Source: Alphaproteobacteria bacterium (GTDB lineage: Bacteria > Pseudomonadota > Alphaproteobacteria > Holosporales > JBOFFI01). From it: a DNA stretch of 34,120 nt. A program made the position numbers and the translations under genes. This document shows, piece by piece, positions 6,157 through 12,657 of this stretch (position 1 is the stretch's first letter; every line of letters begins with the position of its first letter). The notes beneath the pieces are model-generated. The model was given only the letters and a program-made list of their open reading frames with translations, ran no database searches and had not been told where the DNA came from. Location of the stretch: contig JBOFKH010000255.1 in the NCBI GenBank assembly GCA_051657225.1, positions 1 through 34,120 on the forward strand, written 5' to 3'.

Positions 6157-7599
6157 ATGGAAATTTCTCCCATTCTCCTTTGGTTTCGCCAAGACCTTCG
6201 CCTCCAGGATCACCAAGCCTTGCAAGAGGCTTGTCGCACAAAATGTCCTGTTCTTGCTGTGTTTATTGAAGACCCTGGGTTTCCCATAGGGGCTGCTTCA
6301 CAGTGGTGGCGTTTCCATGCCCTTCAAGATTTAGAAAACCAATTGGCCCATCTGGGAATCAGGCTGATCATCCGACAAGGGGACAGCCTTCAACACCTGG
6401 CTCAGCTTATGGAGCAAACACAAGCCAAGCATCTTTTTTTTCACCGACGCTATACCCCAGCCGGGCAGCAGCAAGACAAGCTGATTCAACAGCATTTTGA
6501 AAAACAAGGCTGTTGTGTCAAGACTTACCCAGGTTTTTTATTGGCAGAGCCTTGGGAAATTGTGAATCAGCAAGGGAAGCCCTATCAAATTTTCACACCT
6601 TTTTGGAAAGCGTTGGAGCGGCGCTTAAGCTTTCAAACACCTTTTTTGGCTGAGGCCCCTAAAGCCATTTTCCCTTACACCCATCAAGGTGATCTAGAAA
6701 GCGTGAACTCGACGACGCTTTTTCAGGAACCTGCTTGGGCAGGCTCCTTGGGCGCATTTTGGGAAGTGGGTGAAGCAGCTGCTCACAAGCACTTCAGAAA
6801 TTTTTTACAAAAACCCGTTGAAACGTATCAAAGGGATAGAGATATACCTCATCTGGCAGGAACCTCTTTTCTGTCACCCTACCTTCACCTGGGGCAGATC
6901 AGCATCCATCGCCTTTATGCTGAGACCCGCAAGGCTTCACTCCAGACAAATTTTACATTTGACGGCTTTGAAACATTCTTGAAAGAACTAGGGTGGCGAG
7001 ATTTTTCCTATCACCTGTTGCACCAGTTTCCTTCCCTCAAAACCCATCCTTTCCGGCGTAAATTCGAACAATTTCCCTGGGAAGAAAATGCAGCCTGGTT
7101 AGAAAAATGGCAAACAGGTCAAACGGGTTATCCCTTGGTGGATGCAGGCATGCGTCAGCTTTGGAAGCTGGGGTGGATGCACAACAGGGTGCGGATGATC
7201 ACGGCTTCTTTTTTGGTTAAACATCTACGCATCCCTTGGCAGCAAGGTGAAGCATGGTTTTGGGACACCCTTGTGGATGCAGACCCTGCAAGCAACCCCG
7301 CCAATTGGCAATGGGTGGCGGGCTGCGGGGCAGATGCAGCCCCCTATATACGCATCTTCAACCCCCTTTCCCAAGGAGAGAAATTTGACCCTGAAGGTCG
7401 TTATATCAAAACATTTGTCCCAGAATTAAAAGACCTGCCTGCCCCGTGGGTTCACAGGCCTTTCGAAGCCCCCTCTTTTCTTCTGGCCCAATCAGGCATT
7501 GAGCTGGGAAAAACCTATCCTTTTCCCTTTGTTACCCACGATAAAGCACGGCAACACGCCCTCCAGCTTTATCAAACCTTCACAACTGACCCACGCTAG
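6157..7599 (+). CDS. phrB: Deoxyribodipyrimidine photolyase (class I CPD photolyase/cryptochrome family)
   Basis: N-terminal LLWFRQDLRLQDHQAL. FAD-binding domain motifs are TGYPLVDAGMRQL, WMHNRVRMITASFL and DADPASNPANWQW. Confidence 0.93.
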   Translation: MEISPILLWFRQDLRLQDHQALQEACRTKCPVLAVFIEDPGFPIGAASQWWRFHALQDLENQLAHLGIRLIIRQGDSLQHLAQLMEQTQAKHLFFHRRYTPAGQQQDKLIQQHFEKQGCCVKTYPGFLLAEPWEIVNQQGKPYQIFTPFWKALERRLSFQTPFLAEAPKAIFPYTHQGDLESVNSTTLFQEPAWAGSLGAFWEVGEAAAHKHFRNFLQKPVETYQRDRDIPHLAGTSFLSPYLHLGQISIHRLYAETRKASLQTNFTFDGFETFLKELGWRDFSYHLLHQFPSLKTHPFRRKFEQFPWEENAAWLEKWQTGQTGYPLVDAGMRQLWKLGWMHNRVRMITASFLVKHLRIPWQQGEAWFWDTLVDADPASNPANWQWVAGCGADAAPYIRIFNPLSQGEKFDPEGRYIKTFVPELKDLPAPWVHRPFEAPSFLLAQSGIELGKTYPFPFVTHDKARQHALQLYQTFTTDPR

Positions 7600-7810
7600 C
7601 TCTATATCAAGCTGTAAAAAATATGTCTCTTTTGGATAAAAACAAAAGCTATCAAACGGCTATAGGATTCATTTTTCATTCATTCTTTATTTGCTTATAT
7701 TCACTTTGGTTGTTTTTTTTAGTTAAAAATAAGGGAATAAATAGTGTCAAAAAAAATAGTATCTTCTTTAATCATTGCAAGTTGTTGCTTCAACAGTCTG
7801 CCGGTTTATG
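7586..7810 (+). repeat. Duplicated 5' block, copy 1: last 14 bp of phrB, the intergenic region, and the first 22 codons of the downstream gene
   Basis: By eye it aligns with 9609-9833 at a constant offset of 2023 bp with about a dozen differences. The encoded MSKKIVSSLIIASCCFNSLPVY is identical in both copies. Confidence 0.9.
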
Positions 7811-11485: not shown

Positions 11486-12657
11486 ACAGAACGCTTCTGA
11501 TCGCTGATTTTTTCATAGAGGCGAAGGGTTTCATTACAAAAATGGTCTTGGGAAAAGTGAGCCAAAATTCTTTTTTTGGCTTGCTTTCCCATGACTTTGT
11601 AAGCGCTTTTGTTTAAAGTTAAAACTTGTTCAAGGGCGCTTGAGAGGCTTCCAATCTGGCCAGACTGAAATAAAAACCCTGTTTCTTCAGGAATGACAAT
11701 CTCTTTTGAAGCGCCATGGTCTGCAGCAATTACTGGACGCTCCATGGCTCCAGCTTCCGCTATAATACGGCCAAAGCCTTCCGGCTCTGTTGAAGCAGAA
11801 ACAACAGCGTAAGCAAGCTTATACAACGTTGGGAGATCGTCTATGTGGGGCAACAACCTTAGTTTTTCAGAGAGCCCCAGCTGAGCAGCCTGTTGTTTGA
11901 GCTCTCTCACGTAAGCGTCACGCCCCTGGGGATTTCCCGCAAAAACTAATACTGCCTCCGGGAAACGTTGATGCAACCCGGCAAAAGCCTCTAAAAGAAG
12001 CGACTGTCCTTTCCAACGCGTCAACCGACCCGGCAGCAATATCAGCTTCGTGTGTTCTGAAAGGTTGAGGGATGCCCGCAAAGCAGCCTCTTTTTCTTGG
12101 GTAACTTTGTCTAAGTTGAAAAAAGCTGTATCGACGCCCCTATGGATGACCTGAATTTTAGACCCATCAAACCAATCCAGATGTTGATATTCTTTATAGA
12201 TATGTTCTTTCACAAAAGAAGAAATAGCGATAACAGCATCCCCTCGCGCCATGATAGAATTGTAATAGCGCTTCAAGGCAGAGGAAGCTGAATAAGGCGC
12301 ATGGTAGGTAGTTATAAAAGGAATATCAAGGGCGCGAGCTGCAACATAAGCGCTCCAGGCTGGCGCTCTCGAGCGAGCATGGACGATATTAACTTTAAAG
12401 TCATACAAAACTCGTTGAATTTTCCCAATATTCTGTATCATCTTAAGGGGATTTTTCTTTTGAACGGGAAGCTCAATGTGCACACCACCCTTCGCTTCGA
12501 ATACGTTGACTAAGTCTCCCCCCGAGGATAGAATGAACGCTTCGCTTGTTCTTTCCAGAAGCGCTTGGGAAATGTCAAGCGTGCCACGCTCCACCCCTCC
12601 AGACGCTTGAAAAGAAGGAATAACCTGCAAAACTCTCGGAAAATACTCCGAACCCAT
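11482..12657 (-). CDS. Glycosyltransferase family 4 (GT-B fold)
   Basis: The N-terminal segment VIPSFQASGGVERGTLD and the C-terminal E-x7-E region EPEGFGRIIAEAGAMERPVIAADHGASKEIV support the call. The start is set at the ATG at 12657 (MGSEYFPRVLQV), although the ORF stays open to 12732. Its stop overlaps the stop of the convergent gene. Confidence 0.85.
   Translation of the reverse strand: MGSEYFPRVLQVIPSFQASGGVERGTLDISQALLERTSEAFILSSGGDLVNVFEAKGGVHIELPVQKKNPLKMIQNIGKIQRVLYDFKVNIVHARSRAPAWSAYVAARALDIPFITTYHAPYSASSALKRYYNSIMARGDAVIAISSFVKEHIYKEYQHLDWFDGSKIQVIHRGVDTAFFNLDKVTQEKEAALRASLNLSEHTKLILLPGRLTRWKGQSLLLEAFAGLHQRFPEAVLVFAGNPQGRDAYVRELKQQAAQLGLSEKLRLLPHIDDLPTLYKLAYAVVSASTEPEGFGRIIAEAGAMERPVIAADHGASKEIVIPEETGFLFQSGQIGSLSSALEQVLTLNKSAYKVMGKQAKKRILAHFSQDHFCNETLRLYEKISDQKRSV

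Follow-up and report, generated by a model that had tools for sequence, protein, structure and literature searches.

The 34,120-nucleotide (nt) stretch analysed here, called the window below, is a whole contig of an NCBI metagenome-assembled genome (MAG) labelled 'Alphaproteobacteria bacterium'. Our subject is the segment between phrB and a convergent gene for a GT4 glycosyltransferase (GT), in which two intact open reading frames (ORFs), genes A and B, occupy what we term slot 1 and slot 2. The G+C content is 35-40% across the two genes versus 45-49% in their flanks. Both products are built of the same modules in the same order: a signal peptide, an N-module (alpha or beta type), a body (A1, A2 or B type), a Ser/Thr/Pro-rich stalk, a transmembrane (TM) helix and a tail. 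The features of the locus are listed here in order of position; lengths of proteins are in amino acids (aa), GT' and phrB' denote partial copies of the flanking genes, and L004 and L087 are related contigs described below.

6157-7599, + strand: phrB (deoxyribodipyrimidine photolyase), the upstream conserved flank; Pfam DNA_photolyase, E 6e-46, and FAD_binding_7, E 6e-87
7561-7569, + strand: microhomology copy 1, CTCCAGCTT, in the 3' end of phrB; proximal end of the duplicated unit
7586-7810, + strand: slot-1 5' module, comprising the last 14 nt of phrB, a 144-nt AT-rich 5' region and signal-peptide codons 1-22
7744-9336, + strand: gene A, 530 aa, with signal peptide, two alpha N-modules, A-type ectodomain, TM helix and Tyr-motif tail
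7873-8253, + strand: internal tandem duplication of the alpha N-module in gene A, units 7873-8034 and 8089-8253
8190-8783, + strand: A-body cassette, 60-87% identical to L004 (60-77% from 8290 on) against a background of ~98%
8833-8889, + strand: gene A TM helix, ITGIGIAGVAVGAVATVLV, followed by KKK (hydropathy scan and translation)
8890-9333, + strand: predicted cytoplasmic tail of gene A, with YLEM (9148-9159), YEEV, YDTL and YANV
9333-9598, - strand: GT' relic, a decayed copy of the last ~89 GT codons, 84.7% identical to 11486-11752
9599-9622, + strand: phrB' relic, the remainder of ~39 nt (alignments with L004, L087 and phrB)
9609-9833, + strand: slot-2 5' module, converted towards the slot-1 sequence; left tract edge ~9604-9613, right edge at the signal-peptide end
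9767-11485, + strand: gene B, 572 aa, with signal peptide, beta N-module, B-type ectodomain, Ser/Thr/Pro-rich stalk, TM helix (10925-10981) and a tail carrying PPTYIEI, YLEM (11327-11338), AYAN and YDTF
11482-12657, - strand: GT (GT4 family), the downstream conserved flank; Pfam Glycos_transf_1 and Glyco_transf_4
11748-11756, + strand: microhomology copy 2, CTCCAGCTT, inside GT; distal end of the duplicated unit

The stop codon of GT overlaps that of gene B, and GT orthologues are 391 aa long. In the slot-1 5' region a promoter scan found a promoter-like TTTTCA-17-TATATT at 7673-7701, and the sequence AAGGGA forms a ribosome-binding site. Scans for tRNAs, Rfam families and terminators, made to account for the conserved blocks, gave no match in the region. 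The two N-modules of gene A appear as direct repeats D5 and D6, spaced by 216-219 nt and 78-79% identical.

Conserved blocks flank unalignable gene bodies

The segments 7576-7810 and 9599-9833, offset by 2023 nt, are 94% identical without gaps over 235 nt, and their 225-nt core (7586-7810 and 9609-9833) is 96.0% identical with gaps included. The 5' repeat that an earlier annotation of this DNA (the original prediction) had reported at this offset is thus real. Downstream of gene A, 9334-9440 matches 11483-11589 at 85% and 9448-9570 matches 11602-11724 at 83% (offsets 2149-2154 nt). This second repeat, which had been placed between 9333-9608 and about 11482-11755, is a copy of the 3' end of GT that is 84.7% identical to it over a trimmed 267 nt. 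Its decay had been described from a frameshift, stop codons and 80-85% identity judged by eye, and it consists of a 4-nt deletion, single-base indels and stop codons in every frame.

Homology between genes A and B stops at codon 22/23, the end of the signal peptide, and resumes exactly at the stop codon, so that both boundaries lie where they had been proposed. Between these points the mature regions are 51.3% identical in a global nucleotide alignment, a value within the range given by shuffled sequences (50.8-51.9%) and in keeping with the earlier statement that they are almost unalignable, unlike the 96% identical 5' block. At the protein level, genes A and B are ~26% identical over ~120-140 ectodomain residues (E ~5e-6, signal peptide excluded), and they also share a few tail motifs.

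A tandem duplication at a 9-nt microhomology

Four relatives of the locus were found through the B protein (L001, L002, L003 and L004) and a fifth, L087, through a profile search. In L004 the two-gene structure is the same as in the window, to which most of its 4.2 kb is ~98% identical, and the joint between the two copies is more complete. The L004 joint reads ...CCCATAG, then CTCCAGCTT, then TATAAAACC..., and the phrB-like stretch that follows the 9-mer is TATAAAACCTTTACAGCTGAACCACGCTAG. Leftward of the 9-mer the sequence continues as GT (11748-11756 in window coordinates) and rightward as phrB (7561-7569), and the novel joint therefore lies within a short identity found at both parental sites. 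Within the 34-kb window the 9-mer has just these two occurrences, starting at position 7561 (phrB) and position 11748 (GT). The phrB' relic of L004 is ~39 nt long and starts inside CTCCAGCTT, as does that of L087. Given the L004 joint and the two parental CTCCAGCTT sites, we conclude that the duplicated unit ran from 39 nt before the phrB stop codon to ~270 nt inside GT, with the crossover falling in the 9-nt microhomology.

In the window the copy of the joint is partly deleted, with ~11 nt gone relative to L004. The phrB-like stretch there begins at least from 9599 (ACCTTTACAGCTGACCCACGCTAG) and matches 7576-7599 at 22 of 24 positions; only these 24 nt of phrB' remain (9599-9622) because of the loss at the joint. 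The originally proposed tandem duplication, which spans the DNA between the phrB end and a point ~270 nt into GT, is upheld by this structure and by relatives with one and with two copies of the gene, but its starting point 14 bp inside phrB is not: the phrB relic is 24 nt long in the window and ~39 nt long in L004. Nor does 9608/9609 mark a base-exact joint, since L004 places the joint ~30 nt further upstream and 9609 is the edge of a conversion tract (see below).

The sequence of events that we propose begins with the head-to-tail duplication of a ~2.1-kb segment between two copies of CTCCAGCTT, and illegitimate recombination or template switching at the 9-nt microhomology fits as its mechanism. 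The product has the order phrB, gene, GT' relic, phrB' relic, gene, GT. Bacterial tandem duplications mediated by microhomology are usually transient. The present case resembles them in its head-to-tail copy and in a joint that lies within 9 nt of identity between the parental end points, and in such systems a relative with one copy may have lost the other when the repeats recombined. It is unlike the usual transient duplication in that the relic is ~15% diverged and the two genes carry different cassettes.

Copy number and age of the duplication

A single gene separates phrB from GT in L001 and L002, which match the window at 92-93% across this region, whereas the window and L004 have two copies arranged head to tail. 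The GT' relics of the window and L004 are 97.3% identical and share the same indels, and the duplication can be placed with confidence before the split of these two lineages. L003 and L087 belong to the same genome, which is ~85% identical to the window at the nucleotide level. In L087 the order is a transposase remnant, a phrB' relic starting at the same TCCAGCTT, a full A-type gene and an intact GT; in L003, phrB is followed by a gene with an alpha N-module and a B body and then by unrelated DNA. The transposase remnant of L087 (an ORF remnant at ~5400-5620 of the DDE type, IS630-like by eye, ...LDNAAFHKG...) adjoins the phrB' relic, which suggests that an old joint was later broken in this genome by a rearrangement mediated by an insertion sequence (IS).

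A substitution in the slot-2 5' block, CAGTCTG, is present in L004 and L087 only. Together with the shared breakpoint in L087, it points to a single old duplication that was later split by rearrangement in the L003/L087 genome. Under this reading L001 and L002 would have lost a copy; whether they did so or never had it is not settled. On the GT tree, the GT' relic attaches near the split between the window and L001, with a branch of its own of ~0.13 substitutions per site. Copy number at the locus is unstable.

A more distant relative, L086 (JGI metagenome 3300083086), has a tandem pair of its own at a different locus. The 5' region and signal peptide of this pair are 90-92% identical, a relic of its own downstream convergent gene lies between the copies, and the bodies align over 126 nt at 82% and 96 nt at 74%; a third family member lies nearby. 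Because L086 has its own pair, tandem duplication is a recurrent route of expansion in this family. A 718-aa gene upstream of the family member in L090 was considered as a tandem partner and proved unrelated.

Wider searches added no further copies. When GTDB genome contigs were scanned with phrB, the best relatives were 44-49% identical, and the clade is absent from that collection. A metagenome scan with the family profile (YLEM-based pattern only) gave 81 stretches, none of which was confirmed, and two contigs from a metagenome scan with a degenerate signal-peptide DNA pattern, L088 and L089, were rejected as unrelated and phage-like.

Gene conversion of the 5' module

The slot-2 5' block of the window is 96.0% identical to its own slot 1, but the blocks at the corresponding position in L004 and L087 match it at only 87.9% and 83.9%. 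Its neighbours on either side, the GT' relic to the left and the B body to the right, are 97-99% identical between the window and L004, but positions 9575-9761 are only 78-81% identical. The window follows L004 up to 9608 (ACCTTTACAG) and its own slot 1 from 9609 on, which marks 9609 as the left end of a conversion tract. The right end of the tract coincides with the point at which alpha and beta N-modules lose homology. These comparisons bear out the earlier proposal of gene conversion of the expression and export module, and we conclude that a 5' module of the slot-1 type was copied into slot 2. At least one slot-2-specific base survives within the tract (ATATATC vs ATATGTC in slot 1; common to all three slot-2 copies), and the conversion was therefore patchy or not very recent.

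In mechanistic terms, the duplicated flanks serve as homology anchors, with the 5' region and signal peptide on one side of each gene and the 3' end of GT on the other. The 5' module is homogenised between slots, and conversion tracts halt at the end of the signal peptide, where homology halts.

Codons 3-5 contain a poly(A)8 tract (7750-7757 in the window) in six of the seven copies in the clade, those of L001-L004 and L087 being at the same position. The tract is interrupted only in gene B of the window (AAAGAAAA, 9773-9780), and no variation in its length was seen among the seven copies compared. It could act as a site of phase variation by slipped-strand mispairing.

Gene bodies are exchanged between slots and strains

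Ratios of nonsynonymous to synonymous substitution (dN/dS, omega) were estimated by the NG86 method. Omega was 0.05-0.12 for ispA, HAD, phrB, GT, uvrC and rpsA (0.07-0.12 for phrB against its relatives, 0.05 for GT), and 0.08-0.14 for the signal peptide. For gene B it was 0.34-0.9, not clearly above 1 except in a short TM segment, and for the family it was 5-10 times that of the neighbouring genes. The dS of gene B between the window and L001 is 0.29, which equals the level of the flanks (0.19-0.37). Very fast divergence of the mature protein in place, one of the two explanations originally offered, is at odds with this dS and with omega values of 0.34-0.9.

The differences between close relatives are concentrated in patches. 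Between the window and L004 the median is 4 mismatches per 100 nt, and it rises to 23-40 per 100 nt across 8290-8783, within the A ectodomain. Further diverged patches lie in the A tail, at 9575-9761 and in the B TM segment. The resulting clustering of mismatches has an index of dispersion of 16.3 (p = 5e-114), and the dS between these two strains is 0.27 for gene A and 0.055 for gene B. L001 and L002 have a median of 0 mismatches, and the rest of the gene (body) has a dS of 0.02, but their N-modules, alpha in L002 and beta in L001, are unalignable, with a saturated dS of 1.8; the index of dispersion is 37. Thus strains that are ~98-99% identical overall carry mosaic variants between conserved anchors (dispersion 16 and 37).

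The contents of the slots are also reversed between genomes. In the window gene A precedes gene B, whereas in the L003/L087 genome phrB has the B-type gene as its neighbour and GT the A-type gene. L004 and L087 have A bodies that resemble each other; that of the window is a third type, with no counterpart elsewhere among 5.8 billion protein clusters. Relatives of gene A are limited to P0007 in L004 (66-70% identical, depending on the alignment) and the A-type gene of L087 (51%), and the orthologues of gene B, P0002-P0005, are 90, 75, 66 and 52% identical.

The equality of gene B and flank dS, the shuffle-level similarity of genes A and B and the bounded patches between near-identical strains all argue that bodies were exchanged and not hypermutated. 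The second explanation originally offered, replacement of the body by recombination, accordingly gains from the sharply bounded patches and the swapped slot contents, and we conclude that the bodies are old, deeply diverged cassettes swapped by recombination that did not diverge in place. N-modules (alpha/beta), bodies (A1/A2/B), TM segments and tails are each exchanged between slots and strains by homologous recombination, at short conserved segments. The window also encodes DNA-processing protein A (dprA, 29858-31039), the presence of which fits homologous recombination driven by DNA uptake as a source of allele exchange.

A clade-restricted family of predicted exported membrane proteins

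By sequence-based prediction the products of genes A and B are Sec-exported type I membrane proteins, with a signal peptide (MSKKIVSSLIIASCCFNSLPVYA) and a TM helix of Kyte-Doolittle (KD) hydropathy 2.2-2.4 followed by KKK or KKFF. Family members share the signal peptide M(S/P)KK(I/L)..SL(L/I)IAS.C.N..PV.A, the ectodomain and a Gly/Ala-rich C-terminal TM helix. A lipoprotein reading was rejected: IASC in the window fits a lipobox, but neither the Cys nor the residues at -1/-2 are conserved in P0005 and P0130-P0137, and a PV(Y/V/Q)A site of the signal peptidase I (SPase-I) type is conserved across the family where the lipobox Cys is not. A profile search of 1.84 billion representatives returned only 14 proteins at E <= 1e-3, of which P0136 is an unrelated repeat protein, and genes A and B gave no match to Pfam, NCBIfam or PDB sequences. 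The family thus appears to be restricted to this clade and to have no described relatives.

In the alpha N-module a strongly basic stretch is followed by a 12-aa hydrophobic run (MLLAGLIFLSLL) and this by (S/T)E(A/T)AP(T). Gene A of the window has two copies of the module, and L002, L003 and L087 have one each. The module looks like a second signal peptide after the first one; it was seen in gene A, L002, L003, L087 and P0129-P0137, and is not present in the beta N-module of gene B.

An AlphaFold model of full-length protein (7 sequences) had a mean predicted local distance difference test score (pLDDT) of 41, at which Foldseek comparison is meaningless, and was replaced by a model of the gene B ectodomain only (17 sequences). 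The latter has a mean pLDDT of 82 and a predicted TM-score (pTM) of 0.77 and shows two similar alpha/beta lobes. Foldseek searches of PDB and BFVD with this model gave no match at E <= 1e-3 (best 4e-3 in PDB and 1.2e-3 in BFVD, TM-score <= ~0.3), and the weak echoes were of PCNA-like topology and of uncharacterised phage proteins.

The tails are disordered and variable. Y[LV]EM is nonetheless found in all eight A and B copies, and it is followed in the same order by YDT in seven of them, L003 having RDT. A tails add YEE(V/I)KP, with EYANV also in the window and L004, and B tails add PPTY(I/V)EI, EYEPPR and AY(A/V)N. SH2-type motifs include YxxM (PI3K p85), YEEI/V (Src family), YxN (Grb2) and YxxP (Crk), and we take the tail motifs to resemble ligands of SH2, WW or AP-2. 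The motifs are in this respect like the phosphotyrosine and sorting motifs of eukaryotes, a hint that the tails may contact proteins of a host. An enrichment of YxxPhi in the tails (4/7 and 3/8 tyrosines), judged by eye, was too weak to claim. Two distant members that are otherwise dissimilar, P0134 and P0137, share a final -SQV that is similar to the C-terminus of class I PDZ ligands.

Clade, lifestyle and other features of the window

In a search with rpsA, the nearest named taxa were 67-69% identical (Azospirillum, Dongiaceae). The metagenome that yielded L086 contains a contig with an rpsA 92% identical to that of the window, and this contig also encodes a TLC ATP/ADP translocase and Fic and MORN genes. 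Across related contigs, TLC, Fic, MORN-repeat and secreted leucine-rich repeat (LRR) proteins were located at 7707-9173 and 2938-4059 of L085, 14134-16122 of L086 and 336-1588 of L091. TLC translocases, Fic, MORN and secreted LRR proteins form a set typical of intracellular symbionts or parasites, and their presence hints that the clade is intracellular or host-associated.

The rest of the window carries housekeeping genes: lon, ispA, phrB, uvrC, pgsA, rpsA and those for RNase J and proS, along with typA, plsY, dprA, truA, ftsW and gltX. A dispersed element of ~150 nt with 18-nt terminal inverted repeats (ATAGACCTCTTTCGAAAC ... GTTTCGAAAGAGGTCTAT), resembling a miniature inverted-repeat transposable element (MITE), lies at 3361-3507 (+) and 18809-18966 (-). 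It is also present in L001 (~18690-18855) and at the contig end of L003 (13557-13693), and has no Rfam match. The copy at 3361-3507 is 98.5% identical to the L003 contig-end copy, although the L003 genome is only ~85% identical overall. A 224-aa Cys-rich ORF at 18014-18688 (-) starts in the manner of a signal peptide, matches nothing in Pfam or NCBIfam and contains a 45-nt tandem repeat (18153-18241; IQNMGP(N/D)NIPPYRKP x2). It is called as two genes (91 and 102 aa) in L001 and L002, and may be a second variable secreted protein.

Discussion

We consider it likely, on fairly good grounds, that the segment between phrB and GT is a two-slot locus for a family of hypervariable, Sec-exported, single-pass membrane proteins, shaped by tandem duplication, conversion of the 5' module and exchange of cassettes. 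Its mechanism belongs to a known kind; no description exists of the gene family or of its fold. We take the product to be, in all probability, a protein of the cell envelope or of an interface with a host, subject to diversifying or relaxed selection, in a bacterium that is itself probably host-associated.

The nearest parallels in organisation are the Mycoplasma vlp (M. hyorhinis) and vsa (M. pulmonis) systems, in which a conserved 5' non-coding region and signal peptide precede divergent mature regions. Recombination there takes place inside the conserved 5' part, and switching is by poly(A) promoter tracts or site-specific inversion. The tandem paralogues described here, with a 96% identical 5' module and shuffle-level bodies, follow the same pattern, as does the L086 pair. 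The products of vlp and vsa are lipoproteins, whereas here a conserved lipobox is absent and an SPase-I type site is found instead. No long inverted repeats and no nearby invertase or recombinase gene were seen in the window, and vlp and vsa show no sequence homology to genes A and B.

Msp2 of Anaplasma marginale is an alphaproteobacterial surface protein that generates variants (PMC2877794). The present locus shares with it the conserved anchors around a variable part and gene conversion. Msp2 is an outer-membrane beta-barrel with a hypervariable centre and conserved ends that act as gene-conversion anchors, and it is expressed from one site with silent pseudogene cassettes as the store of variation. 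Here, unlike in Msp2, both slots hold intact genes with a promoter-like region of their own and the product is single-pass and helical; no silent or truncated donor cassettes were found in the window or the available flanks. At the level of population-genetic pattern only, the deep A1, A2 and B bodies and the alpha and beta N-modules also recall the dimorphic merozoite surface protein (MSP) alleles of P. falciparum, where a few deep forms stand in a low-diversity background with gene conversion (PMC10919680), and the MASP family of T. cruzi, where conserved N- and C-terminal targeting parts surround a variable centre (PMC2691823). These differ in being unrelated proteins of eukaryotic parasites.

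With respect to the tails, the disordered region with short SH2-like Tyr motifs resembles that of EPIYA effectors, and the membrane anchor resembles that of Tir. Tir of enteropathogenic Escherichia coli (EPEC) is a membrane-anchored phosphotyrosine effector. For EPIYA effectors, CagA among them, the delivery route is type III or IV secretion (PMC3593179). The proteins described here are unlike them in having a classical Sec signal peptide and a predicted type I topology, and no EPIYA motif occurs in the tails, the motifs being Y[LV]EM, YEE[VI], YDT, YxN and PPTY[IV]EI.

Several observations weigh against parts of the reading that we favour. The age estimates for the duplication conflict: the position of GT' on the GT tree is younger than the L087 breakpoint implies, and the GT' site patterns polarised with L087 are mixed. 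To reconcile the two, GT' would have to have been homogenised later, or the microhomology would have to have been used for duplication more than once. No donor for the A body of the window was found among 5.8 billion protein clusters. Positive selection is not supported, omega being below 1 over long stretches. The host and the intracellular lifestyle are deduced from a different genome, and no secretion system is found among the genes of the window. With the signal peptide cleaved and KKK following the TM helix, the tail would face the bacterium's own cytoplasm, barring delivery of the protein into a host membrane. Finally, many distant family members have short tails without Tyr motifs, and only two of the eight B-tail tyrosines are kept in L003.

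Of the alternatives, the one that fares best leaves the mechanism unchanged and makes the product an ordinary envelope protein of a free-living bacterium, diversified under pressure from phages or grazers, with the Tyr motifs arising by chance. We regard it as possible but on balance unlikely. The housekeeping neighbours, photolyase included, agree with a free-living cell, as do the last four of the points just raised: the window without a secretion system, the predicted cytoplasmic tail, the distant members without Tyr motifs and the sparse conservation in L003. Against it, Y[LV]EM persists in eight of eight tails that are otherwise unalignable, with YDT in the same order in seven of eight, and the TLC, Fic, MORN and secreted LRR proteins of related contigs point to a host-associated clade.

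In the opposite direction, the family could be a new class of host-directed receptor mimic from an uncultured, energy-parasitic clade, a Sec-exported single-pass protein lodged finally in a host membrane, where the conserved phosphotyrosine, PPxY or YxxPhi motifs of its tail (Y[LV]EM, YEE[VI], YxN, YDTP and PPTY) would address SH2, WW or adaptor proteins of the host. This is a speculative extension that we judge improbable. If it were true, an arms race with the host would have driven the diversification of a novel two-lobed ectodomain through exchange of cassettes, and the two-slot locus would let one cell carry two specificities.

A different origin of the second copy is somewhat less probable again, namely that a fragment from a foreign strain with a divergent allele was circularised at CTCCAGCTT and integrated by a single crossover (Campbell-type). 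Such an event would likewise give the order phrB-X-GT'-phrB'-Y-GT, and the two alleles would have differed from the outset. It would account for two bodies that are far older than the relic and for the reticulate sites of the relic, five of which group with L001/L002 and two with the window/L004, and the presence of DprA in the window and the frequent exchange of alleles between strains are consistent with such import. The final anatomy, however, is identical to that produced by duplication followed by allele replacement, so that the present data cannot separate the two. The slot-specific substitutions in the slot-2 5' block of L004 and L087 suggest long residence, and the L086 pair, whose bodies are more alike, looks like an ordinary duplication.

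We give very little credence to a recent tandem duplication followed by extreme diversification through point mutation, in which selection alone would keep the promoter and signal peptide. Conserved flanks around unalignable bodies, and a family omega 5-10 times that of the neighbours, are what such a process might leave. The dS of gene B nevertheless equals that of the flanks, and genes A and B stand at the shuffle level while the neutral GT' relic is only ~15% diverged from GT. Bodies of both A and B type occur in a genome at 85% nucleotide identity; the diverged patches between near-identical strains are sharply bounded, and the 5' block departs from the positional tree. Least probable of all is an assembly artefact, in which the metagenome assembler would have merged, or joined end to end, two strain variants of a locus present only once: the contig does come from a MAG and strain-level variants of the gene exist, but the joint contains part of GT, decayed and with indels, and a phrB end that is cut short, which is not a strain variant, the two copies are diverged and not identical, the same joint and relic recur at 97.3% identity in an independent assembly with a different locus-tag prefix (L004), and the phrB' relic recurs in L087.

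Read as a two-slot locus shaped by duplication, conversion and cassette exchange, the segment would be a compact natural case in which the sequence itself records microhomology duplication, concerted evolution of an expression and export module and exchange of alleles module by module, in a clade without a cultured or described member. It is by far the fastest-evolving locus among the genes compared in this stretch of chromosome. Since the family is also clade-restricted and its ectodomain has no known structural relative, the locus is an obvious candidate for an interface with a host, phage or grazer. Should the tail motifs be functional, the family would represent a phosphotyrosine mimic of bacterial origin, new in both its architecture and its route of export.

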